Numbered from the stretch's first letter, positions 4,996 through 34,874 are shown. The stretch: 64,000 nt of DNA from a virus (IMGVR_UViG_2751185860_000001:1-64000); one strand, 5' to 3'. The notes: generated by a model not told the origin, from the sequence alone. Numbers and translations are program-made.

Positions 4996-5047
4996 GCAGG
5001 GCAGGATATGAGCAAACCGATGCGCAACAGTCATTAGGTGGGTAGAG

Positions 5048-8163: not shown

Positions 8164-8192
8164 TTGACAGTGAGAGATAGTTTTGCTATACA
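8164..8192 (+). promoter_or_regulatory. Sigma70-type promoter for the C4-like leader
   Basis: TTGACA (8164-8169), 17 nt, TATACA (8187-8192). Confidence 0.65.
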
Positions 8193-8304
8193 GATACCCA
8201 AGTGCTCAAAACACTTAACGATAAGCGGATAGGTTACGAAACAATCTCTCCAATGTCTTTTTAAACTGACTATCTTTTTACGTATTTCAACGTATAGTGA
8301 TTTT

Positions 8305-8385
8305 GTCGGGTGTGGTTACACCATACAATACCCTTTATGGGGAAAGTGTAACGACGGACTTATCGCCGTGTTTTGAGCACCCGGC
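8305..8385 (+). ncRNA. C4-antisense-like structured RNA, copy 1
   Basis: Outer stem gtcgggtg/cacccggc, inner stem gttacac/gtgtaac, hairpin cccttta-tgggg; segments cttatcg and gtgttttgagcac are complementary to flanking sites at 8202-8225 and 8404-8424. Confidence 0.78.
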
Positions 8386-8435
8386 GCCCTTTTGGGGCGT
8401 CAATCAAAACTTTATTACGATAAGGAAAACTCCAA

Positions 8436-9092
8436 ATGCAAAAATATGAATTTACAAGCGAAACAATCGAAACAGCTGATGGGCACACTCTTCATCGTAT
8501 TCGTGCCTTAAGAGATTTTGGTAATGTTAAAGCTGGTGACCTTGGTGGCTATATAGAGCTAGAGGACAATCTTTCTCATGATGGTGATTGTTGGGTTGGG
8601 GGTAATGCTTATGTTTATAGAGACGTTGCCCGTGTTTATGAGAATGCTATCGTGTGTGGTGATGCTGTTGTTTGTGGACAGGTTTATGGGAATGCTTATA
8701 TGTCTGGATATACCCGTGCTTATATTGATGCACATGTTTATGGGAATGCTCGTATTTTAAAGGAAGCATGGGTTTATAGTGATGGCCATGTTTATGGGAA
8801 TTCTGAGGTCGCCGGTTCAGCTCGTATTGCATCAGGGGCAAAAGTTTATGGGAATGCAAAAATTGCTGCTCATGCAAAAATTATTGGTGAAGTTTATGAG
8901 AATGCTACGATTGGTGGCCGTGTTAGGATTTACGGTTCCGTTTATGGTAATGCAAAAATTGCTGGTAGTGGATGGGTTTGGGGAAAAGCATATGGTAATG
9001 CAAAAATCACAGGAAAAAACGAGTGGTCTATTCCAATAAATTGTGAGGTTTATGAAGGCGATAATATCGTCGAGATTGCTACAGCAGCGTAA
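8436..9092 (+). CDS. Hexapeptide-repeat (left-handed beta-helix) phage protein, copy 2
   Basis: HRIRALRDFGNVKAGDLGGYIE...DGDCWV then VYGNA repeats; paralog of 5048-5746. Confidence 0.85.
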   Translation: MQKYEFTSETIETADGHTLHRIRALRDFGNVKAGDLGGYIELEDNLSHDGDCWVGGNAYVYRDVARVYENAIVCGDAVVCGQVYGNAYMSGYTRAYIDAHVYGNARILKEAWVYSDGHVYGNSEVAGSARIASGAKVYGNAKIAAHAKIIGEVYENATIGGRVRIYGSVYGNAKIAGSGWVWGKAYGNAKITGKNEWSIPINCEVYEGDNIVEIATAA

Positions 9093-9126
9093 ATAACAGG
9101 CGCGGGGGGCGCCTGCTTTTAAACAA

Positions 9127-9159
9127 AAAAAGCCGCGTCATTTATGTGATGCGGCTTTT
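9127..9159. terminator. Bidirectional intrinsic terminator
   Basis: aaaagccgcgtca-tttatg-tgatgcggctttt between convergent genes. Confidence 0.8.
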
Positions 9160-9673
9160 AAAGAGGCTTCTTATTCACGACTTTAGAATAAAAAATCTTA
9201 CGGTATTTTTCATCTCCTTTATAGAGAGAAAATACAGAGCCATTTACTTGTACTATTAAGTAAAAATCATCAAAACTACTAAACTCCCAACACCTCTTGA
9301 TGTAACAAGAATCAAAATCGTTCTTAAACAAACAATCAGACAGATAATAATTGATGCTTGCAATACGCTGGTCAACCACATCGTCATCATAAAAAATATC
9401 GATAACGTCTTTCTGAAAACTAATATTAGGATTTTTTCTTTTATTTTTTCTTTGGTAATTGTTGTAGACACAGATGAGAAGATCATCAAAAATTTTCTGC
9501 CATTGAATATTTGTTTTTGATGTTAAAAGTGCATCCTGTTCTAAGGTTGCATCTCCATTATGGTGCGTCTTTAAAAATCTAATTCTCTCAGGTATATGAA
9601 ACATAGTCTTCCCTTCTGTAACCTCTGTGCGTTTTTCAGTTTTTCTTGTTAACACGAGCGTTTTCTGTATCAT
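9158..9673 (-). CDS. Hypothetical AT-rich accessory protein
   Basis: 171 aa ORF downstream of the TA pair on the same strand; no recognisable motif. Confidence 0.6.
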   Translation of the reverse strand: MIQKTLVLTRKTEKRTEVTEGKTMFHIPERIRFLKTHHNGDATLEQDALLTSKTNIQWQKIFDDLLICVYNNYQRKNKRKNPNISFQKDVIDIFYDDDVVDQRIASINYYLSDCLFKNDFDSCYIKRCWEFSSFDDFYLIVQVNGSVFSLYKGDEKYRKIFYSKVVNKKPL

Positions 9674-9753
9674 GATGCTTTAAAGAAGATTATATTTTTC
9701 CAAAATATCCTGCACAGCTTCAACCAATTGACTTTCTTTAATGGTTATTTAGG

Positions 9754-10065
9754 TTAGATATGTGGAACAGATCGTTCAAGGGGTTGTACAGCTAACCGAA
9801 GCCCCATAGTTCGTAGTAAGGCAGTCAAACTGCGAAGCTCAGGGTTTCCTTTCTGTGAAAGTGTACGATAAAGCTGTGTTGGATTTAGTTCAGCTGCTTT
9901 AGCTACAGTTTGAACACCACCATAGGCTTTTGCCATTTGACGAAGCGTTACAAGTAGCTCACCTTGATCGCCATCAGCTAAAATTGCATCAAGGGTAGCT
10001 GCTGCCGTTTCAGGATCATTACAGAACAGTTCAGCCATTGCATCATCATGGTTACGGTCTTTCAT
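9754..10065 (-). CDS. Addiction-module antidote, HigA-like HTH antitoxin (HI1420 type)
   Basis: LRQMAKAYGGVQTVAKAAELNPTQLYRTLSQKGNPELRSL. Confidence 0.88.
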   Translation of the reverse strand: MKDRNHDDAMAELFCNDPETAAATLDAILADGDQGELLVTLRQMAKAYGGVQTVAKAAELNPTQLYRTLSQKGNPELRSLTALLRTMGLRLAVQPLERSVPHI

Positions 10066-10077
10066 CTCTACACTCCT

Positions 10078-10401
10078 TTAATCTTCACGGTTTTGCCAAT
10101 CATGCCAATAAGCGCACGCGCGGGTAATATCAGTGTTTTGCGTCCTTTTGGTGCCACCACACAATAACAGCAACACGGTTTTTCCTAATTGGGTATAATA
10201 AATTCGGTAACCAGGCCCGATATGAATTCGCAATTCATAAATGCCATCACGAAGTGGTCTAAAATCACCAAAATTTCCTTGCTCCAAACGGTTAAGGCGG
10301 CGAATAATTGCGGTTTTAGCTTGCACATCACGAAGTTTGTATAACCAGTCGGTTATCAAATTTTTTCCATCAGCAGTAAGGTAGTGGCGTATCTTAAACA
10401 T
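10078..10401 (-). CDS. Addiction-module killer, RelE/HigB-like toxin (HI1419 type)
   Basis: GNFGDFRPLRDGIYELRIHIGPGYRIYY...LLLCGGTKRTQ; toxin-first order. Confidence 0.9.
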   Translation of the reverse strand: MFKIRHYLTADGKNLITDWLYKLRDVQAKTAIIRRLNRLEQGNFGDFRPLRDGIYELRIHIGPGYRIYYTQLGKTVLLLLCGGTKRTQNTDITRACAYWHDWQNRED

Positions 10402-10407
10402 AAACAG

Positions 10408-10436
10408 ATTATCGTTTATAAACGAATATTTGTCAA
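10408..10436 (-). promoter_or_regulatory. TA promoter with operator palindrome
   Basis: Minus-strand TTGACA (10436-10431), 17 nt, GATAAT (10413-10408); palindrome cgtttataaacg at 10413-10424. Confidence 0.72.
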
Positions 10437-10735
10437 GGATTGATATAGTTTTCTTGAAAAGATTTTGCCTTTATATGAAAGCTTTTTAAAATATGCATTC
10501 ATAGAAGAAATTTATGAATATTATCAATGAGTTCTATGAATGAGCTGAGAACAGCATTTGGATGTTGGTAAAATGCTATAAAATGTTTGTTTTCAGTATA
10601 TTATTTTGTTTATCTGTATTAACTAGTTTAATATATTATGATATAATATTGTAAATATATATAAAAATTAGTTTTTTATTCCTATATTTTGTTTCATTAA
10701 GACACACATAATTTTTCTTAGAAAAGATATCCAAC

Positions 10736-11170
10736 ATGATCAATAAAGTAATTTTAGTAGGCAATCTTGGTGCCGATCCTGAGAGCAGGACAATGGCATC
10801 TGGTGCAGAGGTGGTGAACTTTCGTATAGCCACGTCACAGAGCTATACAGATAAAGCAACAGGTGAAAAGGTAGATAAAACAGAATGGCATTCTGTCGTT
10901 GTTTTTAATCCACATCTTGCAAAGGTTGCGCTTCAGTATCTGAGTAAAGGTTCCAAGGTTTATGTTGAAGGTCAATTACAGACACGTAAATGGCAAGATA
11001 AAAGCGGGCAAACACGTTACACAACAGAAATTGTCTTGCCGCAATATAGGGGTGAATTGAGGATCCTTAATAGCATTCAAAAAGATGGTATTGATATGGC
11101 TTTGGAAGCGATGGAGCAAGAGGATAAGCGGTATTTAAAAACAACTTTGAATGATAGAATCCCGTTTTAA
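10736..11170 (+). CDS. ssb: Single-stranded DNA-binding protein
   Basis: [16 protein letters not shown]...[13 protein letters not shown]; acidic tail NDRIPF. Confidence 0.96.
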
Positions 11171-11184
11171 TCAGAGGTTTTCTT

Positions 11185-11730
11185 ATGAAGAAACGAAAGA
11201 AACGGGGAAGACCTAGAATAGAAGGTCAAATAAGAGAACCCAATGGACGTATTTCGCGTGCAAAAACGACTGACAAGTCTTTGTACCAACAGACACTTAA
11301 AATGCGTGCCAAGCGTTATGGGGCGAGTATTCAAGATGCGAAAAACCCGCTTATGGGCACTTATGTAGGGCGGTTATATTTGTTGGAAAAAAAGATTAAT
11401 CAAGATCAGTATGATGCGTCACAGCAGTATATTCAGGTGAAAAACGATTATCGGTGTGCAAAAGGGTTTCAGAGTGCAGTTTATAGTGAGATGCCAACAT
11501 GTTATGATGACAGAGGAAGGGAAAAATGGATTGAAATAGCAACTGATCGCTATGAAGCTGTGCAAGAGGTTATTAGAGAAACACAAGGTTTATATCGTCA
11601 GTATAATCTTCATGCTGCTTTGCAGTATATTGTTATAGAAGACCAACAACTGCCGCATCTTGTCAGTTCTCTATACATTGCTCTGAATGCTCTTCATAAA
11701 TACTTCTCGCAAGAGAAAAAAACTTTGTAA
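11185..11730 (+). CDS. Putative late-gene regulator / antiterminator (DUF6456-like by pattern)
   Basis: 181 aa; last early gene before the late promoter and terminators; INQDQYDASQQY and C-terminal LYIALNALHKYF; close paralog at 35830-36360. Confidence 0.5.
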   Translation: MKKRKKRGRPRIEGQIREPNGRISRAKTTDKSLYQQTLKMRAKRYGASIQDAKNPLMGTYVGRLYLLEKKINQDQYDASQQYIQVKNDYRCAKGFQSAVYSEMPTCYDDRGREKWIEIATDRYEAVQEVIRETQGLYRQYNLHAALQYIVIEDQQLPHLVSSLYIALNALHKYFSQEKKTL

Positions 11731-11752
11731 ACTTTAAGCAGCGTCTTGAATA

Positions 11753-11839
11753 TCAATAAGTGATGAACTCTTGAAAGTCTTTAATAATAACAATAAGGAT
11801 ATCATTATCATCTTTAATGAATTTAATGGCATATTTCAT
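11753..11839 (-). pseudogene. HicB-like antitoxin remnant (not in the ORF track)
   Basis: MKYAIKFIKDDNDILIVIIKDFQEFITY* resembles a HicB N-terminus; ATG overlaps the upstream stop (ATGA); a DIQDAA* tail follows in another frame (11734-11754). Confidence 0.5.
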
Positions 11840-12120
11840 TTGGAACAAGATTGTACGTTAAGTTGCAAATTAAGAGCTGTTAATACTGCAACTAAGGTTG
11901 AAAGTTTAGGATCACCATTTTCACTTAAAGAGCGATACAAACCACTTCGTGCGAGATCCGCTTCTTTTGCTAAAGCACTCATATTTTGAGCTCGAGCAAC
12001 AATACCAAGAGCATCAGCAATATGAGCTGCGTCACCTGTTTTAAAAGCTTCATTTAAGAATATTTGCTGTTCTTCAGAAGTTTTCAGATATTCTTCAGGT
12101 TTAAATGGTGTTACCTTCAT
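11836..12120 (-). CDS. Addiction-module antidote, HigA-like antitoxin
   Basis: ALGIVARAQNMSALAKEADLARSGLYRSLSENGDPKLSTL. Confidence 0.9.
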   Translation of the reverse strand: MKVTPFKPEEYLKTSEEQQIFLNEAFKTGDAAHIADALGIVARAQNMSALAKEADLARSGLYRSLSENGDPKLSTLVAVLTALNLQLNVQSCSK

Positions 12121-12409
12121 CAGTATACTCCTTTTTTAGTTTCAACGCTTTTTCAATATCTTTTTGCTGTGTTGATTTATCTCCACCACATAACAAAAGG
12201 ATAAATTCAGAACCGCTTTTGAAGAAATAAACCCGGTAACCGGCTCCATAGTGGATACGTAATTCACCGATACCATTAAAAAATTTTACATCACCTAATA
12301 ACCCTCGGTTTAAACGTGTGATACGTTCAAGAATAATAGCTTTAACACTTTTGTCTTTGAGCTTCTTAAGCCAAATGTCGAATTCTTCAGTTTTATGAAT
12401 GCGTATCAT
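12101..12409 (-). CDS. Addiction-module killer, RelE/HigB-like toxin
   Basis: GLLGDVKFFNGIGELRIHYGAGYRVYF...LLCGGDKSTQQKDI. Confidence 0.9.
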   Translation of the reverse strand: MIRIHKTEEFDIWLKKLKDKSVKAIILERITRLNRGLLGDVKFFNGIGELRIHYGAGYRVYFFKSGSEFILLLCGGDKSTQQKDIEKALKLKKEYTDEGNTI

Positions 12410-12415
12410 GTGTCT

Positions 12416-12444
12416 ACTATAGTGTACATATGATATTTTGTCAA
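12416..12444 (-). promoter_or_regulatory. TA promoter
   Basis: Minus-strand TTGACA (12444-12439), 17 nt, TATAGT (12421-12416). Confidence 0.7.
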
Positions 12445-12538
12445 GTGAAATCCTTTATTTTAAATGTGTGATTTTACACTTCCAAATACCATATTTAGAT
12501 TAATTGAGATAAAAAGATACCAGATTATGATTTTTTAG

Positions 12539-12567
12539 TTGACATGGGGGAGAAAATAGTATTTAAT
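12539..12567 (+). promoter_or_regulatory. Late promoter of prophage 1 (pR'-like)
   Basis: TTGACA (12539-12544), 17 nt, TTTAAT (12562-12567); near-identical copy at 37134-37162. Confidence 0.78.
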
Positions 12568-12642
12568 GACACCGCTGTAGGAGGTTTTATTGCGTCCAAA
12601 ATTACAGTTGTAATACAATTTTTATTTCTTGCTATGCTACGG

Positions 12643-12668
12643 AAAGCCCTGCGTTTGCAGGGTTTTTT
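12643..12668 (+). terminator. Intrinsic terminator 1 in the late leader
   Basis: ccctgc-gttt-gcaggg followed by T6. Confidence 0.82.
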
Positions 12669-12713
12669 GTTAAAGCAATCCAGTTTATTCATTTTTATTT
12701 ATTGACATTAATT

Positions 12714-12749
12714 GACCTCCTCTTGTCCCCCGAGAGTGAGGTCTTTTTT
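12714..12749 (+). terminator. Intrinsic terminator 2 in the late leader
   Basis: gacctc...gaggtc followed by T6, just upstream of the terS RBS. Confidence 0.6.
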
Positions 12750-12777
12750 GTTTAAATCACTTCCAAAGGAATCCCCG

Positions 12778-13098
12778 ATGGCATCTGGATCAGATAAGTC
12801 TGTGAAAGGGACACCGCCTAATGCAGGAGCAGGGCGTGTGAAAGGTGTTCCCAATAAGACAACGCGTATACTTAAAGAGGCTGTGATTAAGGCTGCAGAG
12901 CAGGCTGGCAACAAATATGGCAATGAAGGGCTGATCTCTTATCTTGAACGCCAGGCTGTAAAATGCCCCGCTGCTTATTTAGCGTTGTTGGGAAAGATCT
13001 TGCCTTTGCAGGTTACCGGTGAAAATGATGAAGCCATCAAGATGATTACACGTGTTGAGATTGTAGCACCTGTTATCAAGGACAAAGATGCTGTTTAA
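12778..13098 (+). CDS. Terminase small subunit (probable)
   Basis: GAGRVKGVPNKTT motif; directly upstream of the large terminase; RBS aagga. Confidence 0.7.
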   Translation: MASGSDKSVKGTPPNAGAGRVKGVPNKTTRILKEAVIKAAEQAGNKYGNEGLISYLERQAVKCPAAYLALLGKILPLQVTGENDEAIKMITRVEIVAPVIKDKDAV

Positions 13099-13109
13099 GG
13101 GTAATTGAG

Positions 13110-14435
13110 ATGGCTACAGCTCAAGTTGTGATCATCGAGAAATTAATCCCCTTGTTTCAAGGAGCTGCTGATGTGCGTGCTGCGTGGGGAGGGCGAGGAT
13201 CAGGAAAGACAAGGTCCTTTGCCTTAATGGCGGCCTTAAAGGGCTATGAATATGGTATGGGTGGGATATCAGGGATTATCCTTTGTGCTCGCCAGTTTCA
13301 AAATTCGCTTGCTGAGAGTTCATTGCAAGAGATTAAACGAGCGATTGAGACTTATGATTTTTTAAAGGATTATTACAACGTTGGAGAGTCGTCCATTAAG
13401 TCGAAAGATGGACGTATATCTTTTCAGTTTTCGGGGCTAGATCGCAATATTGCGAGCATTAAGTCGATGGGACGTATTTTGCTTTGTTGGGTTGATGAAG
13501 CTGAACCTGTGACAGAAACGGCTTGGCAAACACTGATACCGACATTGCGGGAAGAAGGAGAGGGCTGGCGTGCAGAGCTTTGGGTGACGTGGAATCCGTT
13601 GCGTGAGAATGCACCTGTTGAAAGACGCTTTCGTTTTACAAAGGACGAAAACATTAAAGGAGTAGAAGTTAACTGGTCTGATAATCCTTTGTTTCCCCAA
13701 AAGCTGCAAAGAGTACGTCTTGATGATCTTCAAAACCGTCCTGAGAGCTATAAGCATATTTGGGAGGGTGATTATCTTAAAGCTGTGCAAGGGGCTTATT
13801 TTCAAAAGGAGATGTTAGCAGCAGAGCAAGAGGGGCGCATAGGGCATGTTGCACGTGATCCTTTAATGCCCATTCGTGCTTTTTGGGATATTGGGGGCAC
13901 TGGAGCTAAAGCTGACGCAACGGCTATATGGATTGCACAGTTTGTGGGAAGAGAGATCAGGGTGCTTGATTATTATGAAGCACAAGGTCAACCCTTATCG
14001 GAGCATATAGGATGGTTGCGTCATAATGGTTATGACAAGGCAGTGATGGTGCTTCCTCATGATGGGGCGACAAGAGACCGTGTTTATAATGTGAGCTTTG
14101 AGAGTGCTTTAAATGAGGCTGGTTTTGACACACAGGTTGTGCCCAATCAAGGAGCAGGGGCTGTTAAGATGCGCATTGAAGCGGTGCGTCGTATTTTACC
14201 TTGTGTTTGGTTTCATGAAGAAACAACGGTTGCTGGCCGTAAGGCGTTAAATTGGTATCACGAAAAATGGGATGAAAAGCGCGCCATTGGTTTGGGTGCT
14301 GAACATGACTGGGCAAGTCATGGAGCCGATGCCTTTGGTTTGATGTGCACTGTTTATGAAGCACCACGTACTCCATCAAAACCAGAGCGTTATAGCGCGA
14401 CAGAAAGAGAAACGGCATCATGGATGGCATTTTAG
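13110..14435 (+). CDS. terL: Terminase large subunit (PBSX/Sf6-like)
   Basis: Walker A GGRGSGKT, Walker B WVDEAE, nuclease WDIG and ASHGADAF. Confidence 0.95.
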   Translation: MATAQVVIIEKLIPLFQGAADVRAAWGGRGSGKTRSFALMAALKGYEYGMGGISGIILCARQFQNSLAESSLQEIKRAIETYDFLKDYYNVGESSIKSKDGRISFQFSGLDRNIASIKSMGRILLCWVDEAEPVTETAWQTLIPTLREEGEGWRAELWVTWNPLRENAPVERRFRFTKDENIKGVEVNWSDNPLFPQKLQRVRLDDLQNRPESYKHIWEGDYLKAVQGAYFQKEMLAAEQEGRIGHVARDPLMPIRAFWDIGGTGAKADATAIWIAQFVGREIRVLDYYEAQGQPLSEHIGWLRHNGYDKAVMVLPHDGATRDRVYNVSFESALNEAGFDTQVVPNQGAGAVKMRIEAVRRILPCVWFHEETTVAGRKALNWYHEKWDEKRAIGLGAEHDWASHGADAFGLMCTVYEAPRTPSKPERYSATERETASWMAF

Positions 14436-16462
14436 AAAACGATGTACAAAAGACGACAAGTCTTGATGATGATGCGCTTTATAGACGTCTTAAGTCTTGG
14501 TATGCAGAAGATATAGAGCATGCCAATGAATGGCGTGAGCAAGCGCGTGAAGACTTTGACTTTTATAATGGACGTCAATGGGCAGAAGAAGATTTAGCTG
14601 TTTTAAAGGCACAGCGGCGCCCTGTGATGACGTTTAACCGTATTGCTCCTTTGGTGAATGCCATTGTTGGAGCAGAGCGTAACAATAAACGGGAAGTGCA
14701 GTTTCAACCAAGACAAGTTGGTGCAGCGATATCCAATGAATTACTCACCGGAGCAGCAGAATGGTTTCGTGATGAAGCTGAAGCTGAATATGCCGATTCC
14801 GATGCCTTTCAAGATATGGTCATTTGCGGTATGGGGTGGACAGATACACGGCTTGATTATGAAGAAAACCCTGAAGGTAAACCCACAGTAAGACGCTTAG
14901 ATCCACTCAAGATGGTGTGGGATGTGAATGCTGTAAGGCCTAATCTGGTTGATGCACAGCGTATGTGGTATGTTGATCGCAAGCCCATTGAGGATGCAAA
15001 AAGCTTGTTTCCCAATGTGGCCAGTGAAGATCTGAATGCTGATTGGGCTGTCGATAACACAACCGATCTTGAAGATTATCATGTTTCCCTTGATGCTTAT
15101 AGTGATGACAATAATAGGATAGATGCCGTTTCAAGGAAACGCTATGTCACGCTTGTTGAGTGTCGTTGGTTTGAACATGAGACCTATTACAAAGCACCTG
15201 ATCTTCAAACAGGACAGATGCGTGATTATAGTGCCCAAGAGTTTGAACAACTGCAAATGCTTGTGCCGCAAATCCAAGGAGCGAGCTTTCATAAAAAGGT
15301 GGTTAAGCGTGCTTTTTTAGGGCGTCGTCTTTTAGGCAAGCCTGACAGACCATTAGCGCCTGATGGGCAACTTGGATGGGAGTGCATTACAGGCACGTTG
15401 GATAAGCTTAAAAACCAGTTTTATGGCATTGTGAGGCCGGCGAAAGACCCACAAAAATGGTCGAATAAATATTTTAGTCAGGTGATGTATATCCTCAATA
15501 GCCAGGCTAAAGGTGGGATTATGGCTGAACGAGGTGCTTTTGATGATGAGCGCCAGGCCGTGGAGAGCTGGGCAAAGGCTGATACAATCACATGGCTTAA
15601 AAGTGGTGCTTTAACTCGTGGAATGATACAGTCTAAACCACGTGCAGAGTTTCCTAATGGTTTCTTTCAGCTGTTTAATGAGGCCTGTGAGGCGCTTACA
15701 CATGTGACAGGTTTATCTGCTGAGTTTATAGGAACAAGGGAGGTTAATCAGGCGAATGTGTTGGAGAATACACGTCGCCAGTCAACACTCAATTTGCTTG
15801 CAGGTTTATTTGATAATTTAAAGCTGTATCGGTGCCGACAAGGAAAGATCATTCTTTATCTGATTCAAACCTATCTTTCCGATGGTCGTTTGGTGCGCAT
15901 TTCTGGACCAGAGAAGGCTGAGTATGTACCCTTAACGCGTGAGGCTGTCACCACCCTTGAGTATGACATTATCGTTGATGATTCACCAACCAGTCCGAAT
16001 GAGAAAGAAAGAACCTTTGCAGCGGTTACTCAGATGTTGCCGTTGCTCGGGAATTTCTTAACGCCTGATATGATCCCCGATCTTTTGAAACTCTCGCCAT
16101 TGCCAGCAACTCTTGTAGCCAGTTTAACGGCTAAAGCCCAGCAAGCGCAAATGCAACAGCAACAACAGCAGATGATGATGCAAAACCAAGGGCCACAATT
16201 AAGCCCCGAGCAACAAGCAAAAGTTGCAGCCATTCAACAAGAAACTCAGGCGAAAGGCGTGCTCAATCAACTGGATGCCCAAAGCAAACAAATGGCACTG
16301 CAGCAAAAGAATATTGAGCTTTTCTTAAAGCAAGAACAAGCGCGTATGCAGCTTGAACAGCAAAGAGCAAGAAATGAGATAACCCAGCGAGAGATGCAGA
16401 TCAGAGCATTACAAATAGAGCTTGAAGGTTATCGAGCAGCAACCATCAGAGGCAAAACTTAA
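14420..16462 (+). CDS. Portal protein (P22-like) with Gln-rich coiled C-terminal barrel
   Basis: 680 aa after terL; EDFDFYNGRQW, RPVMTFNRI; poly-Q tail. Confidence 0.88.
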   Translation: MDGILENDVQKTTSLDDDALYRRLKSWYAEDIEHANEWREQAREDFDFYNGRQWAEEDLAVLKAQRRPVMTFNRIAPLVNAIVGAERNNKREVQFQPRQVGAAISNELLTGAAEWFRDEAEAEYADSDAFQDMVICGMGWTDTRLDYEENPEGKPTVRRLDPLKMVWDVNAVRPNLVDAQRMWYVDRKPIEDAKSLFPNVASEDLNADWAVDNTTDLEDYHVSLDAYSDDNNRIDAVSRKRYVTLVECRWFEHETYYKAPDLQTGQMRDYSAQEFEQLQMLVPQIQGASFHKKVVKRAFLGRRLLGKPDRPLAPDGQLGWECITGTLDKLKNQFYGIVRPAKDPQKWSNKYFSQVMYILNSQAKGGIMAERGAFDDERQAVESWAKADTITWLKSGALTRGMIQSKPRAEFPNGFFQLFNEACEALTHVTGLSAEFIGTREVNQANVLENTRRQSTLNLLAGLFDNLKLYRCRQGKIILYLIQTYLSDGRLVRISGPEKAEYVPLTREAVTTLEYDIIVDDSPTSPNEKERTFAAVTQMLPLLGNFLTPDMIPDLLKLSPLPATLVASLTAKAQQAQMQQQQQQMMMQNQGPQLSPEQQAKVAAIQQETQAKGVLNQLDAQSKQMALQQKNIELFLKQEQARMQLEQQRARNEITQREMQIRALQIELEGYRAATIRGKT

Positions 16463-16480
16463 ACGAAAAGGAACGAAACA

Positions 16481-17455: not shown

Positions 17456-17561
17456 AGGACATGCATCTTAGCTCATCAGAGATAACCAAGTGATGGTGCT
17501 TGGTTATGCCGTACTTTTTGCGGCAATTTTTTAAACAATACGAAGAAAGGCATTTTAAAAA

Positions 17562-18698: not shown

Positions 18699-18726
18699 AC
18701 ATCAATGAAATGAGTAGGATTTAATT

Positions 18727-19158: not shown

Positions 19159-19196
19159 AAGAAGGGGGCGTTTGTTCCTTACGCTCCCTCCTTTTT
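19157..19196 (+). terminator. Internal terminator after the capsid genes
   Basis: gggggcgt/acgctccc stem followed by tccttttt. Confidence 0.6.
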
Positions 19197-19216
19197 AAAT
19201 GTTGGGAATATTATTG

Positions 19217-21794: not shown

Positions 21795-21795
21795 C

Positions 21796-27156: not shown

Positions 27157-28025
27157 TGATTAATTTTCATCCTGATGTTCACAGTGCCATCTCCCAGGCG
27201 GCACAAAGGTATGATTTACCCGAAAGCTTTCTTAAACGCGTGGCGATGATAGAAAGTGGTGGTGATCCCAATGCAAGAAATAAGAACAGTAGTGCAGGTG
27301 GGCTTTATCAATTTTTAGATTCAACAGCACGCCAATATAAGTTGGATAACAAGTTTGATCCACTTCAATCGATTGATGCGATGGCACGGTTTACCAAAGA
27401 CAATATCCGTTATTTGCAAACAGCTTTGGGAAGAGCACCTTCAGAAGCTGAACTTTATTTAGCACATCAACAAGGGCCAGCGGGGGCTGCAAGGCTTATT
27501 AAAAACCCAAATGCACCAGCAAGCCAGCTGTTAACCCCCCAGGCAATAGCCCTTAATGGTGGCCGCCCTGGTGCAACAGCAGGTGATTTTATGAATCATG
27601 TTTATCAGCTGTACAATAAAACAGCACAGCCTGAGCAAGGTTATAGGCAAGCGGTTCCACCACGTGGCATGCAAAGGCTTCAAAATGTAATGCAGGGTGA
27701 TCAATTGGTTGCACAGAATATGGCAATGTATCCTCAAATGGTGCCTCCTGAAAATGTTGCACGTACTGATTTTCTAAAAAAAGGCGTGGATGGTTTAACG
27801 CAGTTAATCAAAGAGAATGCGCAAAATTATGATCAACAGATACAGATGGCACAAAATCACATGATGCAGCAGCCTGTGTTTTCACAAGCAGGGGCACGCC
27901 CTGCAGATCTAACGCCTTTGATTGACCCGTCACGACGTCAACCTGTTTCTTCTTTAAATGGTCGACAAAGAGGAGATCAATTGCGCAAAGAGTTCTTAAC
28001 AAGGGCAGGAGTTTATAATGTCTGA
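27156..28025 (+). CDS. Virion-associated lytic transglycosylase (SLT-like)
   Basis: AMIESGGDPNARNKNSSAGGLYQF. Confidence 0.85.
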   Translation: MINFHPDVHSAISQAAQRYDLPESFLKRVAMIESGGDPNARNKNSSAGGLYQFLDSTARQYKLDNKFDPLQSIDAMARFTKDNIRYLQTALGRAPSEAELYLAHQQGPAGAARLIKNPNAPASQLLTPQAIALNGGRPGATAGDFMNHVYQLYNKTAQPEQGYRQAVPPRGMQRLQNVMQGDQLVAQNMAMYPQMVPPENVARTDFLKKGVDGLTQLIKENAQNYDQQIQMAQNHMMQQPVFSQAGARPADLTPLIDPSRRQPVSSLNGRQRGDQLRKEFLTRAGVYNV

Positions 28026-28998
28026 TATTTATGATTGGTCACTGACAGCGGATACAAACGCACACTCAGATGATATTATTAATTGGGCACAAGGTCAGCC
28101 GCCCAGTTCTGTTAATAATAGTGCACGTGCTATGATGCAGCGTATACGAGAATATCTTGCAGATAATGGCGGGAGTATTGAAGCAAAGTTTGTCGTCAAC
28201 AGTCAAGAAAAGACGACATCAATTACACTCAATACAGTTTCTCCTATCACGGAATATAAGAATGATATCTTTATACGTTTTAAGGCAAGCGACACAAATG
28301 TTGGTGCGACAACAATAACCGTCAATCGTTTGAGTGAGAAGCCTGTTTATAAGATGACCGATGCAGGTGTTATGCCTTTAGAAGGTGGTGAACTGCAAAA
28401 AGATGGCATTTATGAACTGGTCTATAATAACAACACACTAACAAGAAGTCTTGATGGTTGGTATTTATTAAACCCAACCCCAAAAACACCTCCTAAGATA
28501 GAAATTTTTCCAGCTGGGTTTATTGCGACATTTGCAATGAAAGAAGTGCCAGGTGGTTGGCTTTTGTGTGATGGTGCAAGCTATGAGCGCAAGAAATATC
28601 CTCGGTTGTTCAAGGCAATAGATATATATTGGGGAGCAGATAGCGATACTACTTTTAGAGTACCCGATTTTAGGGGGATGTTTTTACGTGGTTTTGATAA
28701 TGGGCGTGGTGTAGATCAGGGTAGAAAATTTGCTGAAAAGCAGCAAGATAGCTTGAAAACGCATACACATGGCTGCACCATTGAAATGTCAGGGGCGCAT
28801 GTACACCAGTATCAGTATGAGGCGTTAAGAAGACCTGGCAGTCCTATTGGTGGAAGAAACCCTGCCTTTTATAGCCAAAATATAAGAGCAAATACAGCCT
28901 CAGCAGGTGCACATACGCATAGTGCAACGATTTATTCAACAGGTGGAGCAGAAACACGCCCTATTAATACAACGGTTGTTTACGCCATAAAATCATAA
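28018..28998 (+). CDS. Tail fibre with phage tail-collar domain
   Basis: PAGFIATFAMKEVPGGWLLCDGASY...FRVPDFRGMFLRGFDNGRGVD...ETRPIN. Confidence 0.88.
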   Translation: MSDIYDWSLTADTNAHSDDIINWAQGQPPSSVNNSARAMMQRIREYLADNGGSIEAKFVVNSQEKTTSITLNTVSPITEYKNDIFIRFKASDTNVGATTITVNRLSEKPVYKMTDAGVMPLEGGELQKDGIYELVYNNNTLTRSLDGWYLLNPTPKTPPKIEIFPAGFIATFAMKEVPGGWLLCDGASYERKKYPRLFKAIDIYWGADSDTTFRVPDFRGMFLRGFDNGRGVDQGRKFAEKQQDSLKTHTHGCTIEMSGAHVHQYQYEALRRPGSPIGGRNPAFYSQNIRANTASAGAHTHSATIYSTGGAETRPINTTVVYAIKS

Positions 28999-29011
28999 AG
29001 GTTTTTTAAAG

Positions 29012-29272
29012 ATGATCAATAATCCCTCGGCAATTGATGAGATTGCCGACACAGGGCAGATTCGTGTTCTTTTTTATGCAAGTCATAAATTAGTTCATGC
29101 GCCATTAAATAAGGTTCTTGATAAGGTCAAAGACGATATTCAGCATGATCTTTTGAATGTTTTTACAGCTTACCAAAAAGAGACAGAGCAACGCATTGAG
29201 ACTTTGCAAGAAGCCGTTGATGAATTGCGTTTGCAACTTGTCAATCTAACACATCCCGAAGATACAAATTAA
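29012..29272 (+). CDS. Small coiled-coil tail-associated protein
   Basis: 86 aa ORF between the two fibre genes. Confidence 0.55.
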   Translation: MINNPSAIDEIADTGQIRVLFYASHKLVHAPLNKVLDKVKDDIQHDLLNVFTAYQKETEQRIETLQEAVDELRLQLVNLTHPEDTN

Positions 29273-29285
29273 GGAATTCAAAGCG

Positions 29286-31582
29286 ATGCCTATTCCCTAT
29301 CACACACACAAGTTTGAAATTGAGCCAGCGACAAATAAGGAAGTCAAAGAAGGTATTTTAGACAATAAAGTTGTTGCACCCTCTTCATTGGGGAGTGCAG
29401 CGGCTTATTCTATGGGTTATTTTGCGACTGCTGCTCAAGGAAAGAAAGCTGATGAGGCCGTTGCAAAAAGAGATGTTGGGGCACTTGCTTATAAAGATAC
29501 GGTTACAGTTAATGATATAAGCACAAGTGGGGATCCTAGTGAGAATACAGTTCTATCGGGTACTGGCTGGATAAAGCTATCGCCTTTGGGAATTGGCGAT
29601 ATGAGTGCTGCTATTTATGATCCTTCTAATGTGATGTCAGATGCCTTTTCTATGGAGAATATGGTTGAAGGTGATACAAAGAAGATTTTGACTGCAGAAG
29701 AAAGAGTAAAGCTACAATGGATAAGTTCTGAGTGCCCTACAATAGAAAAATGGAAGAAGGCAGATGAGGATATCAATTATCCTATATCTCCTGCTGATCT
29801 TAAAGATACTATCACTCATTTTACATTATCAAAATCTCTTGCGATGTCAAAATCAGTTTATGATCCAGATAAAATAGCAAAGGATGTTTTTGCTATGGAT
29901 CATATGAAAGAGGGGGAGAAACACCTTATCTTAACGCCTCAAGAACGTATCCAGATTACGAAGATTAATCAAATTGAAGAGGTTGCACAGCAAGCACAAA
30001 CGACAGCTCAATGTGGGGTCAATGCAGCAGGTGAGGCTAAAGAGACTGCAGATAAAGCACAAGTGGCCGCAGAGAGTGCAAAAGAAACGGCGGCGGTTGC
30101 AAAAGAGGCGGCAGTAGCTGCACAAACGACAGCTAATAGTGCAAAGAAAGCCGCTGATACTGCACAAAGCACTGCCAATAAAGCACAAGAAACTGTAGAT
30201 AAGGTGCAAAGCACTGCAGAGAGTGCAAAGGAAACGGCAGCAGATGCTTTAAGCACAGCAAAGGATGCGCAAAGCACTGCTGATAAAGCACAAGTGGCTG
30301 TAGAGAGTGCAAAAGAAGCAGCGACAAGTGCAAAAACAGTAGCTGATAAGGCGCAAGAAACTGCCGTGGATGCAAAAGAGACTGCAGACAAAGCACAAAA
30401 AGCAGTTGATCTCATTCACCCTCTTGAAAAGCAAGATTGGATTGATGGCATCAAAGCAGAAAATGCACTGATATCACCGGCTCATCTTGTTGCTTCTATC
30501 AAAGCAAATAGTGGCGGCAGTAGTGGGGGCAGCAGCAATAGTGTGGGTGTAGGTGTTAGCAAACCTGTTGAGATTTTCATGACGGAAAGTGGGGAAATTG
30601 CATGGCCAGAAGGGACAACTGGAGACACCGAGCTTGAAATATGGGCTTGGGGTGGTGGTAATGCTGGTGATGATAGTGGTCGTCATGGTGGTAATGGTGG
30701 GTGTTGTACTTATGTGAGAACAAGGAAAAAGTTTCTTGGCAACAGTAAAGTAACTATCGGCAAGGGTGGAAAAACAGCTGAGAATAGCGGTTTCGCTGGG
30801 GAAAAAACAAAAGTTGGTCAGTTTATTACAGCTTCTGGTGGTTCTATCGGATACGATCCTAGTGGTATTCATGGTGCCAGGGGCGATGATGGAGCTGATG
30901 CAGAGGATCAAAGTGGTATTGGGGGTGATGGCAAGAATGGTGAAGTTGGTAGGATAGGTGGATTTGGTGGTAATGGGGGAAAGGGGGCAAAAGCGGTAAA
31001 AATAGTACTGGAGGGCGTGGGGGCAGTGGTGGCAGAGGGGGCGATAATTTTTTAAAAAGTGCCGGTAATGGAGGTAAAGGCGGTGATGGTGGGCGTGGCG
31101 AGAATGGTGGTAAAGGCGGCGGAGGTGGCGATGGTGGAAACAATATATATAACGGTGGCGGTGTTGGAGGTTGGGGTGGTAAAGGAGGAGATGTAGGTGC
31201 TGGTTTAGGTGGTGAAGGCGGTTGGGGTGGTAAAGGAGGCAATAGTATGTGGGGTGGTGGTGGCGGAGGTGGTATTGGAGGAGACGGTGGTGATAGTAAC
31301 CAAGGAATTGGTGGTAAAGGCGGTTTAGGCGGACGTGGTGGAGACAGTATTTATGGCGGTGCAGGTGGAGGGGCAGGGGGTGGCAAAGGTGGAAAAGGCG
31401 AGAAAAACGGTAATAATGGTACTAGTGGACTTGGGGGTCATAGCATGTGGGGTGGTCGTGGTGGACAGGGAAGTATTGGTTACTATGGTGGTGGCGGTGG
31501 ATATTTTCCCGGAAAAGATGCGACATCTTCATCAAGCGGTGCTGGGGGAGATGGTGCTGTATTAATTAAAGTGTATTTATAG
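29286..31582 (+). CDS. Long tail fibre: Ala-rich heptad stalk plus glycine-rich tip; continuous only through a -1 shift near 30977-30987
   Basis: ORF 29286-31055 and the -1 frame leading into ORF 31247-31582 join (GKGGKSGKNSTGG...); C-terminus GAGGDGAVLIKVY matches the fibre tips at 57093 and 58444. Confidence 0.72.
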
Positions 31583-31597
31583 AAATGGAATGAAACA

Positions 31598-32263
31598 ATG
31601 GCACGAAGGATTAGTAAAGACTGTTTGAATTGTTTAAAAAAATGGGAAGGCTTGCGATTAAACGCTTATCAAGATGCATCTGGTGTTTGGACCATTGGAT
31701 ATGGTCATACCGGAAAAGCTGGTAAGCCATTTGTTGTTGAAGGTATGACGATTACCAAGCAAAAAGCTGAAACTATACTTTTAACTGATTTGCAAAAATA
31801 TGAAGCAGCAGTAGAAAAAGAGGTTTGCGTTGATTTAAATGATGAACAGTTTGGGGCTCTGGTTTCATTTTGTTATAATGTTGGTGTAAGTGCTTTTCAA
31901 CGCTCTACCTTGCTTAAAAAGCTTAATAAAGGGGATTATGAAGCTGTACCGGCTGAATTACAAAAATGGACAATGGCAGATGGCAAACGTTTGAAAGGTT
32001 TAGTTCACCGGCGTGCTGCTGAAGCGGGGTTATGGGCAACGAGTGCTTATGTTTCTTCTAATTATCAAGCTGTAGAAGCAAAAGAATCAACAAGTGCTTT
32101 TAAAGTAGAAATGTTAGCGCCTGTCATTGGGTCTTTCTCGGGGCTTGGAGGATTACTTGCTGGCAATGGTCCAGTTCAGTGGGCTTTTGCGGCAATTATG
32201 GTTTTAGCAGCTTGTGTTGGTATTACGTTTGTTGCTCAACGTTTTTGGGAGCAACGGCTGTGA
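31598..32263 (+). CDS. Endolysin, GH24 phage lysozyme with C-terminal hydrophobic helices
   Basis: EGLRLNAYQDASGVWTIGYGHT (E-x8-D-x5-T); GLVHRRAAEAGLW. Confidence 0.92.
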   Translation: MARRISKDCLNCLKKWEGLRLNAYQDASGVWTIGYGHTGKAGKPFVVEGMTITKQKAETILLTDLQKYEAAVEKEVCVDLNDEQFGALVSFCYNVGVSAFQRSTLLKKLNKGDYEAVPAELQKWTMADGKRLKGLVHRRAAEAGLWATSAYVSSNYQAVEAKESTSAFKVEMLAPVIGSFSGLGGLLAGNGPVQWAFAAIMVLAACVGITFVAQRFWEQRL

Positions 32264-32487
32264 TTTGGTGGGGAAAGAAATATTTACTGATGGTGGCGGC
32301 GACTTTAGCCGCTTTTTTTGTAACTTTAGCTAAGGTTTTTCGGTTTGGAAAGAAAGTTGAGCAACGCAAACGGACTGAGAAAACTTTAAAAATAGCTATA
32401 ACACGGTTTGAAGTAGAAGATGAAGTTAACAAGAAAAGTGATGTGGATATACGCTCTGATCTGTCTGAGTGGGTGCGTAAAGAATGA
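32260..32487 (+). CDS. Inner-membrane spanin-like protein (Rz-like)
   Basis: GTG start overlapping the lysozyme stop (GTGA); N-terminal TM helix then coiled region. Confidence 0.6.
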   Translation: MIWWGKKYLLMVAATLAAFFVTLAKVFRFGKKVEQRKRTEKTLKIAITRFEVEDEVNKKSDVDIRSDLSEWVRKE

Positions 32488-32632
32488 CTATGTTTCTTGC
32501 CTAGGATGGATGCCAATTTATTTGGATAGGCAAGACTACGATGGAATCAGTTCAAACTTAGCACGAGACATTTTAAAGCATAATGAGAACGGAAAACGTT
32601 CTTGTGGATGGAAGCCTATTAACACAAGTTAA
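32420..32632 (+). CDS. Outer-membrane lipoprotein spanin-like protein (Rz1-like)
   Basis: Lipobox LSGC; overlaps the preceding gene in another frame. Confidence 0.65.
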   Translation: MKLTRKVMWIYALICLSGCVKNDYVSCLGWMPIYLDRQDYDGISSNLARDILKHNENGKRSCGWKPINTS

Positions 32633-32666
32633 AGGTGATTTATAAGGGTAAGTTGCAAAATCCTAT

Positions 32667-32696
32667 TCCCTAACCTGATTATTTTATCCCTAACCT
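32667..32696. repeat. Candidate integrase arm-type sites
   Basis: tccctaacct at 32667-32676 and 32687-32696. Confidence 0.5.
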
Positions 32697-32745
32697 TAAA
32701 TAAATATCAATAAAATCAATGGGTTATAGGGGTAAAAAAGGCATA

Positions 32746-32761
32746 TGGTGCCCCCAGAGGG
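32746..32761 (-). other. att core resembling a tRNA 3' end (...CCCTCTGGGGGCACCA)
   Basis: Minus strand reads T-stem half ccctc, acceptor half tgggggc, discriminator A and CCA; lies between the lysis genes of prophage 1 and the integrase of prophage 2. Confidence 0.7.
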
Positions 32762-32887
32762 CGAATCAGTCCTTAGCAAGTAGAATCCAATCACATAAAA
32801 ATGTGCAAAGACGTGTTGCTGTATATAGCTTTTTATGATTCAGTAAGAAAATTAATGATTAAATAAAAAATCTGATATCAAAAATTA

Positions 32888-32908
32888 AAGGTGGTCAAAA
32901 AGGTGGTC
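32888..32908. repeat. Candidate arm-type sites for integrase 2
   Basis: aaggtggtc at 32888-32896 and 32900-32908, just before the int start. Confidence 0.5.
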
Positions 32909-32923
32909 GAAAAGGAGGGGTAA

Positions 32924-34081
32924 ATGAGGGCGATTCATAGGTTAACAGCATCGTTTGTAAAGACATCTCCTCAGGGTAAGTATTGTGATGGAGCAGGCTT
33001 ATGGTTAAATGTTCGAAAAGACAATACACGCGGTTGGTTTTTTCGTTATACATACCGCAATAAACGCCGTGAAATGGGGCTTGGTCCTGTTACAAAAACT
33101 TCTTTAAAGGAAGCACGCGAGTTTGCTAAACATTATAGTGATATTCTTAAGGGTGGCAACGATCCTATTGTATTTCGAGAACAAAGCATTTTAAAACAGC
33201 AAAGCAATGTTTTTCAAGAAATTGCTCAAGCGGCTTTTGAAAGTAAAAAAGCTGAGTTAAAAAATGAAGGAAAAAATGGTCGTTGGTTTTCTCCACTAGA
33301 GTTACACGTTATTCCACATATAGGTAACCTTCCTGTAGAAAAATTAACAGCGAATATTATTCGTAATGTTCTTGCTCCACTTTGGCATAAAAAAGGAGAT
33401 ACAGCGCGAAAAGTACTTAACCGTATCAATATTTGCTTAAAATATGCCGCCGCTCTTGGCTTGGATGTTGATTTACAAGCTTGTATGAAAGCACGCGCTC
33501 TTTTAGGAAAGTCACGCGCTATATCAACAAATATTCCTGCTATGCCATGGCGGGAAGTTCCGGCTTTTTATCAAAACTTAAATGATGACCTCCTTTCAAA
33601 TTTAGCGCTAAAATTGCTAATTTTGACTGGAGTACGGTCATATCCCTTGCGATATTTGCGTCTTGAGCAAATTGATAAAAATGTATGGACGATACCAAAA
33701 GAAAATATGAAGGGTATTGTAGGCAAAGTTTCAGACTTTCGCGTACCGCTAAGTAATGAAGCTTTGAGAGTCATTGAAAAAGCTCTTTCTTTTGAAAAAA
33801 ATGGTTTCTTATTTTCTGGTCTTAAAGGCACCCCAATTTCTGATGCAAGCATGGCAAAACATATGAAATTTTGTGGTTTAAAGTATCGTCCTCACGGTTT
33901 TCGCTCAAGCTTACGAGATTGGATAGCAGAAACAACATCAACACCATTTGAGATTGCCGAAACTGTCCTTGCTCATTCAGTTGGTAGTTCAGTGACAAAA
34001 GCTTACATGCGAACAGATTTTTTAGAACAACGACATGCTCTCTTAGAACAGTGGGCTACATTTATAACAGGGACGACTTGA
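32924..34081 (+). CDS. int: P4-type tyrosine integrase with arm-binding domain
   Basis: HRLTASFV...YCDGAGLWL; LTGVRS; HGFRSSLRDW; LAHSVG...KAY. Confidence 0.95.
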   Translation: MRAIHRLTASFVKTSPQGKYCDGAGLWLNVRKDNTRGWFFRYTYRNKRREMGLGPVTKTSLKEAREFAKHYSDILKGGNDPIVFREQSILKQQSNVFQEIAQAAFESKKAELKNEGKNGRWFSPLELHVIPHIGNLPVEKLTANIIRNVLAPLWHKKGDTARKVLNRINICLKYAAALGLDVDLQACMKARALLGKSRAISTNIPAMPWREVPAFYQNLNDDLLSNLALKLLILTGVRSYPLRYLRLEQIDKNVWTIPKENMKGIVGKVSDFRVPLSNEALRVIEKALSFEKNGFLFSGLKGTPISDASMAKHMKFCGLKYRPHGFRSSLRDWIAETTSTPFEIAETVLAHSVGSSVTKAYMRTDFLEQRHALLEQWATFITGTT

Positions 34082-34224
34082 CAAAATCACGGAAGCATTT
34101 ATATACGCAAATCAGGTGCTTGAAAAACACCTTAAGCAAACAGCGGATAGATTGTCGACACAATCTTTTTTCTGCACATTAAAGGCTTTGACTCGTTGTA
34201 TACGTGTGGCGTATAGTGATCCTG

Positions 34225-34306
34225 TCGGGTGTGGTTATGCGATACAATACCCTTTATGGGGAAAGCATAACGACGGACTGTTTGCCGTGTTTTTCAGCGC
34301 CCGGCG
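34225..34306 (+). ncRNA. C4-antisense-like structured RNA, copy 2
   Basis: Same fold as 8305-8385 with compensatory stem gttatgc/gcataac; segments ctgtttgc and gtgtttttca are complementary to 34121-34143 and 34327-34349. Confidence 0.8.
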
Positions 34307-34358
34307 CTCTTTTTTTTGAGTGTCAATGAAAAACGTTTGTTACAAACAGGAGTTCGTT

Positions 34359-34874
34359 ATGAACAATCTTATAGAGATTAAAAAACAAGTGATTGATCAG
34401 GAAACTGTTCAGACAGTCAACGCACGTGAGTTGTGTGCTTTTTTAGAGGTAGGAAAAGATTTTTCTACTTGGATTACAAACCGCATTAATCAGTATGAAT
34501 TTGTTGAAAATCAAGACTTTGTTTGCTCCCCTATTTTGGGGAGCAAAGGCAGAGGTGGTCACAATCGCAAAGAATACCATCTCACCTTAGACATGGCGAA
34601 AGAGTTATCCATGGTTGAACGTAATGATAAAGGACGTCAAGCCCGTCGATATTTTATTGAATGTGAAAAAAAATTAAACAGTCAATTACAATTTGATCGT
34701 GAACTGTTTTCTCGTGATTTATTAAAATCACCTTCAGGTATTGGTGAAATTTTAGAAATAATTATGACACGTTTATTAGATGCAAATGGTTTTGAAAAAG
34801 AGCTTGAACATTACAAATCAGTTACAACAGAAGCCAAGCGTGTTTTAGAAAGCCCTGTTGCAAAGGCTGCTTAA
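34359..34874 (+). CDS. AntA/AntB-family antirepressor
   Basis: DQETVQTVNARELCAFLEV...YHLTLDMAKELSMVERNDKGRQARRYFIECE; RBS aggag before ATG 34359. Confidence 0.9.
   Translation: MNNLIEIKKQVIDQETVQTVNARELCAFLEVGKDFSTWITNRINQYEFVENQDFVCSPILGSKGRGGHNRKEYHLTLDMAKELSMVERNDKGRQARRYFIECEKKLNSQLQFDRELFSRDLLKSPSGIGEILEIIMTRLLDANGFEKELEHYKSVTTEAKRVLESPVAKAA

Follow-up and report, generated by a model that had tools for sequence, protein, structure and literature searches.

The 64,000-nucleotide (nt) stretch of viral DNA IMGVR_UViG_2751185860_000001:1-64000, referred to below as the window, holds two prophages from a Bartonella genome, each with a non-coding block in front of a phage gene. Each block is probably a self-contained antisense module of the type represented by the c4 RNA of phage P1. 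A small structured RNA presents two recognition words, termed here the loop word and the joiner word, and each word has a complementary target upstream and downstream of the RNA on the same strand. The downstream loop-word target lies on the Shine-Dalgarno (SD) sequence of the next gene. The words differ between the two blocks (copy 1 and copy 2) and change together at all three places, as the original prediction, made from the sequence of the window, had proposed, and the same behavior is seen across 42 units of the genus. The segments named in that prediction were all found at their positions, and the layout of upstream pair, folded RNA and downstream pair over the ribosome-binding site was borne out in both copies (Table 1).

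Recognition words and their targets

The analysis covered 42 distinct units from 35 loci; loci L010, L018 and L023 were left out because they did not meet the anchor pattern. Among these units, 22 different loop words and 7 different joiner words combine in 33 ways. All 42 units (42/42) have an exact 7-mer target of their own loop word at the expected place upstream, and 40/42 have one downstream; for the joiner word, such a target occurs in 42/42 and 38/42, respectively. When the RNAs were combined with the flanks of units having different words, loop-word targets were found in 4 of 1660 pairings upstream and in none of 1660 downstream, and joiner-word targets in none of 1462 on either side. 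The complementarity between RNA and targets is far beyond chance, and homologues in the genus keep it nearly without exception; its loss had been named beforehand as what would speak against the prediction. In the 84-column alignment of the RNAs, columns without a majority base occur only inside the two words. Over the whole 230-nt block, the word sites are only modestly more variable than the remaining positions (entropy 0.75-1.36 vs. 0.74), because the leader and the spacers vary too. The concentration of variation in the words is thus claimed only within the RNA gene.

In all 40 units having a downstream site, the last two nucleotides of the loop target there are AG, and the target extends into the SD sequence, typically AGGAG. 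The nucleotides that follow the target are GAG, GAA, GAT or similar, and the ATG is located 8-12 nt further on. In copy 1, the target cgataag at 8418-8424 overlaps the SD sequence aagga (8422-8426), with the ATG at 8436, 11 nt further. In copy 2, the target caaacag overlaps the SD sequence aggag (34348-34352). The upstream joiner targets are 9-13 nt long and reach into the stems, whereas the downstream ones are shorter, at 6-10 nt.

A genome-wide search for closely spaced bipartite targets found them only in the RNA's own unit or in a duplicate sharing its words; the remaining hits are few, widely spaced and chance-like. Consistent with this, the predicted duplex energies in the window are -15.0 and -16.3 kcal/mol for the cognate pairs and -5.7 and -8.5 kcal/mol for the crossed pairs. 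In a 9x9 matrix of duplex energies, the cognate pair is always the best (mean -16.9 vs. -7.8 kcal/mol). The predicted energies thereby separate the two copies, as expected for the two orthogonal switches of the original prediction. However, the two are no special pair, being two of nine units in the genome and of about 700 in the genus.

Structure of the RNA units

Both RNAs in the window are predicted to be about 85-90 nt long and to have a c4-like fold. In the minimum free energy (MFE) fold of each RNA alone, which equals the consensus structure, a 9-base-pair (bp) outer stem is followed inward by a long hairpin 1 and by a 4-bp hairpin 2 with the 8-nt loop word, and the second recognition word forms a single-stranded joiner 3' of hairpin 2. 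The inner stem covaries between the copies (gttacac/gtgtaac in copy 1 vs. gttatgc/gcataac in copy 2), and this earlier observation is supported by pair counts in the genus. Of 36 distinct RNAs, 22 have C-G and 13 have U-A at pair 15/44, and at pair 16/43 there are 23 with G-C and 9 with A-U. Double-sided changes are present in helices 2 and 3. Over the whole scaffold, 99.6% of the cells in this set are paired, vs. 32-55% with slid partners.

The hairpin-1 motif AUACAAUACCC...GGGGAA (8320-8345 and 34239-34264) is nearly invariant both in the genus and in the phylum-wide Rfam consensus, and P1 c4 is without it. A small hairpin following the RNA (8383-8401 and 34303-34324) also covaries between the copies, with ggcgccc/ggggcgtc in copy 1 and ggcgctc/gagtgtc in copy 2.

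A promoter and terminator scan called nothing relevant in copy 1, and in copy 2 only the proximal promoter and the terminator after the RNA. The other promoter and terminator assignments in Table 1 come from reading the sequence and from conservation. The distal TTGACA is invariant in the 42-unit alignment, and the scan did not call the distal promoter of copy 1 because its -10 element ends in A. The leader hairpin of copy 2 was missed because it has too few G-C pairs. The leader hairpin of copy 1, for which the scan made no call either, may likewise act as a terminator.

Family assignment

An Rfam scan of the window at the gathering threshold had a single hit, at 8305-8393, to sRNA-Xcc1 (RF02221; 55.3 bits, cut-off 53), a family that was first described in Xanthomonas campestris. 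Copy 2 matches the same model over its full length with 46.3 bits (E 3.3e-7), which is under the 53-bit cut-off, and the two copies align closely in sequence. The conserved hairpin-1 motif of sRNA-Xcc1 is present in both copies, and the fold is the same. The window RNAs are members of the sRNA-Xcc1 family, c4-like in their predicted working and outside the C4 family by the tests applied. Given this membership, an Rfam-based annotator would find copy 1. Rfam assigns sRNA-Xcc1 to no clan; C4 and c4-a1b1 are both in CL00128.

In earlier papers, sRNA-Xcc1 is treated as a virulence-linked or vesicle-borne trans-acting small RNA (sRNA), or is placed upstream of symE or an ORF6N gene (PMC12189769; bioRxiv 10.1101/2025.06.18.660453; 10.1101/2020.03.17.996009). 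No statement of c4 logic for sRNA-Xcc1 was found in the searchable literature, to which the original description of sRNA-Xcc1 does not belong, and none on Bartonella.

Identity with the Brt RNAs of Bartonella was ruled out, as the published probe and primers (Tu et al. 2016, PMC5387305) match other loci and none of the nine units of this genome. The units described here precede AntA, Rha or YdcK-like genes, vs. an XRE-type trp gene downstream of the Brt RNAs. With one mismatch each, the Brt probe matches C1:14075, C2:1299833 and C2:1300228, one of which is ~680 nt from the unit at C1:13319. The presence of these Bartonella-specific elements supports placing the genome in this genus.

Comparison with known systems

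The P1 c4 RNA is excised from its operon transcript by RNase P and is a trans-acting immunity factor. As in the immI operons of P1 and P7, the Bartonella RNAs have an outer stem around two hairpins, with words in the loop of hairpin 2 and in the 3' joiner. One target pair is located upstream and one downstream on the same strand, and the loop target is on the SD sequence of the gene that follows. Of the two words, the joiner is complementary to the distal target and the loop word to the SD-proximal one, and in most units an antirepressor would be the regulated output, as it is in P1. The annotated P1 record has a1 (ttgacag), b1, the 77-nt c4 RNA, a2, b2 on the SD sequence of icd, and then ant. 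In P1, a' is the 3' single-stranded word and b' the hairpin loop, so the 'a' and 'b' labels of the original prediction were swapped. Alignment of P1 and P7 showed two substitutions per word, made at a1/a'/a2 and at b1/b'/b2. The P1 and P7 records thus confirm specificity by coordinated substitutions at three places, which the Bartonella units share.

There are also clear differences from P1 c4. The Bartonella units have a shorter outer stem and a longer hairpin 1 with the conserved AUACAAUACCC...GGGGAA motif. The RNA has a promoter of its own, placed after the upstream targets; in P1, by contrast, a1b1 is preceded by both promoters. The proximal promoter suggests a primary transcript, in contrast to the excised c4, and the Bartonella RNA probably has no need of 5' processing. 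According to its record, P1 also places icd, a cell-division inhibitor, under c4; no icd-like open reading frame is present in the Bartonella units, and the gated gene is monocistronic. Where P1 and P7 have two specificities, the Bartonella units have dozens.

The CI RNA of the satellite phage P4 is another processed immunity RNA, in which seqB is complementary to seqA and seqC on both sides in the same operon. It acts by premature transcription termination rather than by occlusion of the ribosome-binding site and is not known to gate an antirepressor.

The Bartonella units also resemble the isrK-orf45-anrP locus of the Salmonella prophage Gifsy-1, where a leader with a terminator (putative here) is upstream of an antirepressor gene. 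In Gifsy-1, a short leader RNA activates translation of the antirepressor on a read-through transcript, and the short and read-through isoforms come from one promoter (PMC4825925). Unlike at that locus, the isrK model has no match to the Bartonella leader at E<=10. It does match the P1 a1b1 leader with its terminator hairpin (35 bits, E 7e-6; AF234172 48244-48325; L041:195-276), and this P1 leader is the counterpart of the Bartonella upstream target block. The ~80-nt processed 'orf45 prime' species of Gifsy-1 may be the c4-like RNA of that locus; the IsrK paper makes no mention of c4 (PMC4825925).

Proposed mechanism and alternative explanations

In the proposed mechanism, the proximal promoter would give a free RNA of about 85-90 nt, whose outer stem encloses the two hairpins. 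Two parts of this RNA, the hairpin-2 loop (8 nt) and the single-stranded 3' joiner, would be exposed and would pair with the two sites in the 5' untranslated region (UTR) of the next gene. Because the last two nucleotides of the loop site are the AG of the AGGAG SD sequence, 8-12 nt before the ATG, this pairing would block ribosome binding and keep the gene silent. Since every unit has its own word pair, the RNA would act only on its own element or on an identical incomer, providing a private immunity code like the immI heteroimmunity of P1 and P7. With a two-word address of its own on each RNA, each element probably has a private off-switch.

In the transcript from the distal promoter, the upstream target pair would bind the RNA words in cis. 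Such pairing would unfold the outer stem or terminator and leave the ribosome-binding site free, so that the gene would be switched on by distal and off by proximal transcription. Predicted folds of the long transcripts have the upstream targets paired with the RNA words and the outer stem dissolved (z -4.8 and -3.7), and the SD sequence is unpaired in the fold of copy 1. On account of these folds and the greater length of the upstream joiner targets, the leader is proposed to be a cis anti-antisense element and antiterminator, a role that we hold to be possible at slightly less than an even chance.

Several observations weigh against the c4-type antisense module. The C4, c4-a1b1, c4-2 and isrK models match neither block at E<=10 in a permissive Rfam scan, although the P1 controls score 68.8 bits with C4 (RF01695; gathering cut-off 45 bits) and, for the P1 leader, 51.0 bits with c4-a1b1 (RF03163) and 35.1 bits with isrK (RF01394). 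In the opposite direction, the genus covariance model R1 has no match on the P1 locus. With no cross-match between the covariance models, homology to C4 is not demonstrated and the units have the same design only. The earlier description of the blocks as C4-like stands for the design logic; the family is sRNA-Xcc1. As cited in PMC12189769, sRNA-Xcc1 is described as trans-acting, controlled by HrpG/HrpX and carried on integron cassettes. Units sharing one word show intermediate predicted cross-pairing, e.g. -14.9 kcal/mol, and insulation may therefore be incomplete. Copy 1, whose subtype has a poor -35 at the proximal promoter, is without a good proximal -35 element and has just a U4 run after the RNA. 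It also gates a protein without known function, and immunity is therefore not established for this copy. Expression of the units is itself a reading of sequence signals.

The three sites could also form a purely cis-acting leader switch, in which the RNA is a structured 5' UTR and its words pair either downstream, closing the ribosome-binding site, or upstream, opening it, with no free sRNA and no trans immunity. The location of all three sites on one strand within ~230 nt, the strong intramolecular pairing in the long-transcript folds, the weak proximal promoter of copy 1 and the lack of a clear terminator after its RNA are consistent with such a switch. However, a TTGACT-N17/18-TATAGT promoter ending 6 nt 5' of the RNA is conserved in most units, a terminator-like U8 tract follows the copy 2 RNA, two genus units keep the RNA and the upstream sites without downstream sites, and the P1 relative is a free 77-nt RNA. 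We regard the cis-only switch as unlikely. The words might instead be repeats acting at the DNA level, as protein-binding operators or recombination sites, with an incidental RNA fold, given that the RNA words repeat the flanking words in inverted orientation. This is extremely improbable: the words sit exactly in the loop and joiner of a fold backed by covariation and by an Rfam model, one site always overlaps the SD sequence, and hypervariable words on a constant scaffold are unexpected for operators of a shared repressor.

A different function for the same antisense mechanism would be that of an addiction module like type I toxin-antitoxin systems, in which the RNA holds down a growth-inhibiting protein and retains the module or island rather than serving as an immunity device. 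The units are monocistronic RNA-plus-gene cassettes with their own terminators and reach 42 copies per genome, and sRNA-Xcc1 is found upstream of the toxin gene symE in Xanthomonas integron cassettes (bioRxiv 10.1101/2025.06.18.660453). The cell-division inhibitor gene icd is likewise gated by P1 c4, and the copy 1 beta-solenoid protein, being without known function, would leave room for this role. Most gated genes, however, are AntA, Rha or Bro antirepressors, the gated proteins have no known toxicity, and both window copies are located in prophage early regions, beside an integrase or ssb gene. An addiction role therefore appears very unlikely.

Prophage context and gated genes

One unit is present in each prophage of the window, as originally predicted. 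The order in prophage 1 is integrase (1-1044), exonuclease, RecT, AntA-KilAC gene, helix-turn-helix repressor, copy 1, ssb, terminase and further genes as far as a lysozyme at 31598-32263. In prophage 2, the integrase (32924-34081) is followed by copy 2, antA and ssb.

Table 1. Positions of the features of both units and of adjoining genes in the window, counted from its first nucleotide
Feature	Position	Strand	Sequence, match or basis
Copy 1 distal promoter-like site	8164-8169, 8187-8192	+	TTGACA, 17-nt spacer, TATACA; by reading
Copy 1 upstream joiner-word target (P1-type a1), 13 nt	8202-8214	+	gtgctcaaaacac; exact reverse complement of 8368-8380
Copy 1 upstream loop-word target (P1-type b1)	8219-8225	+	cgataag; exact reverse complement of 8359-8365
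Copy 1 leader hairpin and nearby T-run	8227-8262	+	ggataggtt/aatctctcc; conservation in the 42 units equals that of the RNA
Copy 1 proximal -10-like element	8293-8298	+	TATAGT, 6 nt 5' of the first base of the RNA; reading and alignment conservation
Copy 1 RNA gene	8305-8393	+	RF02221 55.3 bits; genus model R1 97.7 bits; MFE fold equals consensus structure
Copy 1 outer stem	8305-8313 with 8377-8385	+	
Copy 1 loop word	8359-8365	+	cttatcg
Copy 1 joiner word	8368-8380	+	gtgttttgagcac
Copy 1 small hairpin after the RNA	8383-8401	+	overlaps final 3 nt of outer stem; fold -16.4 kcal/mol, z -2.9
Copy 1 downstream targets	8404-8410 (joiner), 8418-8424 (loop)	+	tcaaaac, cgataag; span 8404-8426
Copy 1 gated gene, YdcK-type beta-solenoid phage protein, 218 amino acids (aa)	8436-9092	+	PF18836 E 2.6e-7; phrog_5070 E 1.7e-61
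Prophage 2 tyrosine integrase	32924-34081	+	PF13356, PF22022, PF00589; 3' end at copy 2 distal promoter
Copy 2 distal promoter-like site	34078-34083, 34100-34106	+	TTGACA, TATATAC (-10 region); by reading
Copy 2 upstream targets	34121-34130 (joiner), 34136-34143 (loop)	+	tgaaaaacac, gcaaacag
Copy 2 leader hairpin, terminator-like	34149-34171	+	agattgt/acaatct, then T6 run; predicted folds
Copy 2 proximal promoter-like site	34188-34217	+	TTGACT, 18-nt spacer, TATAGT, ends 6 nt 5' of the RNA; 10/12 consensus matches, conserved in alignment
Copy 2 RNA gene and U8 tail	34224-34317	+	RF02221 46.3 bits; R1 100.3 bits; fold
Copy 2 loop word	34278-34285	+	ctgtttgc
Copy 2 joiner word	34287-34296	+	gtgtttttca
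Copy 2 terminator-like site after the RNA	34296-34308 and T-run	+	promoter/terminator scan
Copy 2 downstream targets	34327-34334 (joiner), 34343-34349 (loop)	+	tgaaaaac, caaacag; ATG 34359
Copy 2 gated gene, AntA-type antirepressor, 171 aa, terminator hairpin after it	34359-34874	+	PF08346 E 2.4e-26; phrog_5817 (anti-repressor Ant) E 9e-50

Copy 2 gates an AntA protein, with no icd. The protein gated by copy 1 has no family match to an antirepressor, and phrog_5070, to which it belongs, is a family without known function. Among the gated genes of the nine units in this genome, three are AntA-type (one of them a 40-aa stub), three Rha-type and three YdcK-type beta-solenoid genes; all are monocistronic, each with its own terminator after it. 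Genus-wide, the AntA type prevails.

The Rha- and AntA-type gated proteins have a common C-terminal domain of ~60 aa (C2:608073-608588, which is 34359-34874 of the window; C2:640454-640948; C2:718985-719467; C2:965753-966226; C2:1187002-1187517). The AntA and Rha gated proteins are therefore modular antirepressors with exchangeable N-terminal domains. The YdcK-type protein fills the antirepressor slot behind three of the nine units (8436-9092 of the window; C1:3636-4292; C1:12746-13267), a position that suggests an antirepressor-like or Icd-like role. A YdcK-type paralogue at 5048-5746 of the window has no RNA leader.

On the repressor side, the intergenic region 4640-5060 was read for shared operators or targets and none were seen. 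Toxin-antitoxin-like gene pairs are located in the early regions of both prophages (9754-10401 and 36429-37021), and one of them is a Gp49/HI1420-antidote pair on the minus strand.

Distribution of the units

The genome (1.81 Mb) contains nine units, including the two of the window. All nine have the same layout, i.e. a distal TTGACA promoter, upstream targets, a leader hairpin with T-run, a proximal promoter, the RNA, a small hairpin, downstream targets, the SD sequence and the ATG. In the genus, matches are present in 68 of 90 Bartonella genomes, ~700 in total and at most 42 per genome.

Some units have unusual arrangements. Two units are located in tandem, 570 bp apart, at C2:1186303-1186952 (L009/L004); the first precedes only the 40-aa AntA stub and has both words in common with the unit at C2:966279. 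The units L020:1502-1584 and L027:1228-1310 (loop GCTATGTG) keep the upstream pair, have no downstream pair and resemble orphan antisense RNAs; L027 has a second unit ~270 nt beyond the orphan-like one. On the minus strand, ~3.3 kb past the end of the window and at the far side of prophage 2 or close to it, the unit C2:640999-641078 has the words CTAGGTA and GTTTGTTAG and gates a Rha-type gene.

RF02221 was found in 22 of 97 genera among 151 genomes sampled across the phylum. In 29 loci from outside Bartonella, complements of the word region are present at the expected place upstream in 26 and downstream in 21. The control rates with swapped flanks are 22% upstream and 10% downstream, and the values for the remaining part of the RNA are 7 and 1. 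Target pairs linked in cis as in c4 are present in 28 of the 29 loci, and several of these RNAs directly precede Bro-N/P22_AR_C or Rha genes.

Discussion

The promoter arrangement of the sRNA-Xcc1-type units is their own, and their specificities are unusually numerous. As a tentative extension that we consider somewhat doubtful, the whole sRNA-Xcc1 family would be a second widespread lineage of c4-type, cis-linked RNAs. The Bartonella address code would then be combinatorial, with 22 or more loop words, 7 or more joiner words and up to ~40 modules side by side in one genome. Each would be an RNA-only bistable switch, and together they would insulate related prophage-derived antirepressor modules from one another.

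If the c4-type model is true, separately filed Rfam families (C4 with c4-a1b1, isrK and sRNA-Xcc1) would be linked by one regulatory design, and sRNA-Xcc1, taken in papers as a free-standing virulence or vesicle-cargo sRNA, would be re-read as a local regulator of the adjacent gene. The scaffold would be a ready source of orthogonal translational repressors. The Bartonella genomes would represent a naturally occurring collection, on one scaffold, of dozens of antisense RNA/target pairs insulated from one another, and they would offer a direct system for studying how the specificities of RNA-based phage immunity evolve, because three sites must change together. Such a code could explain why many related prophages, and perhaps further elements derived from phages, can share a small genome without cross-induction.

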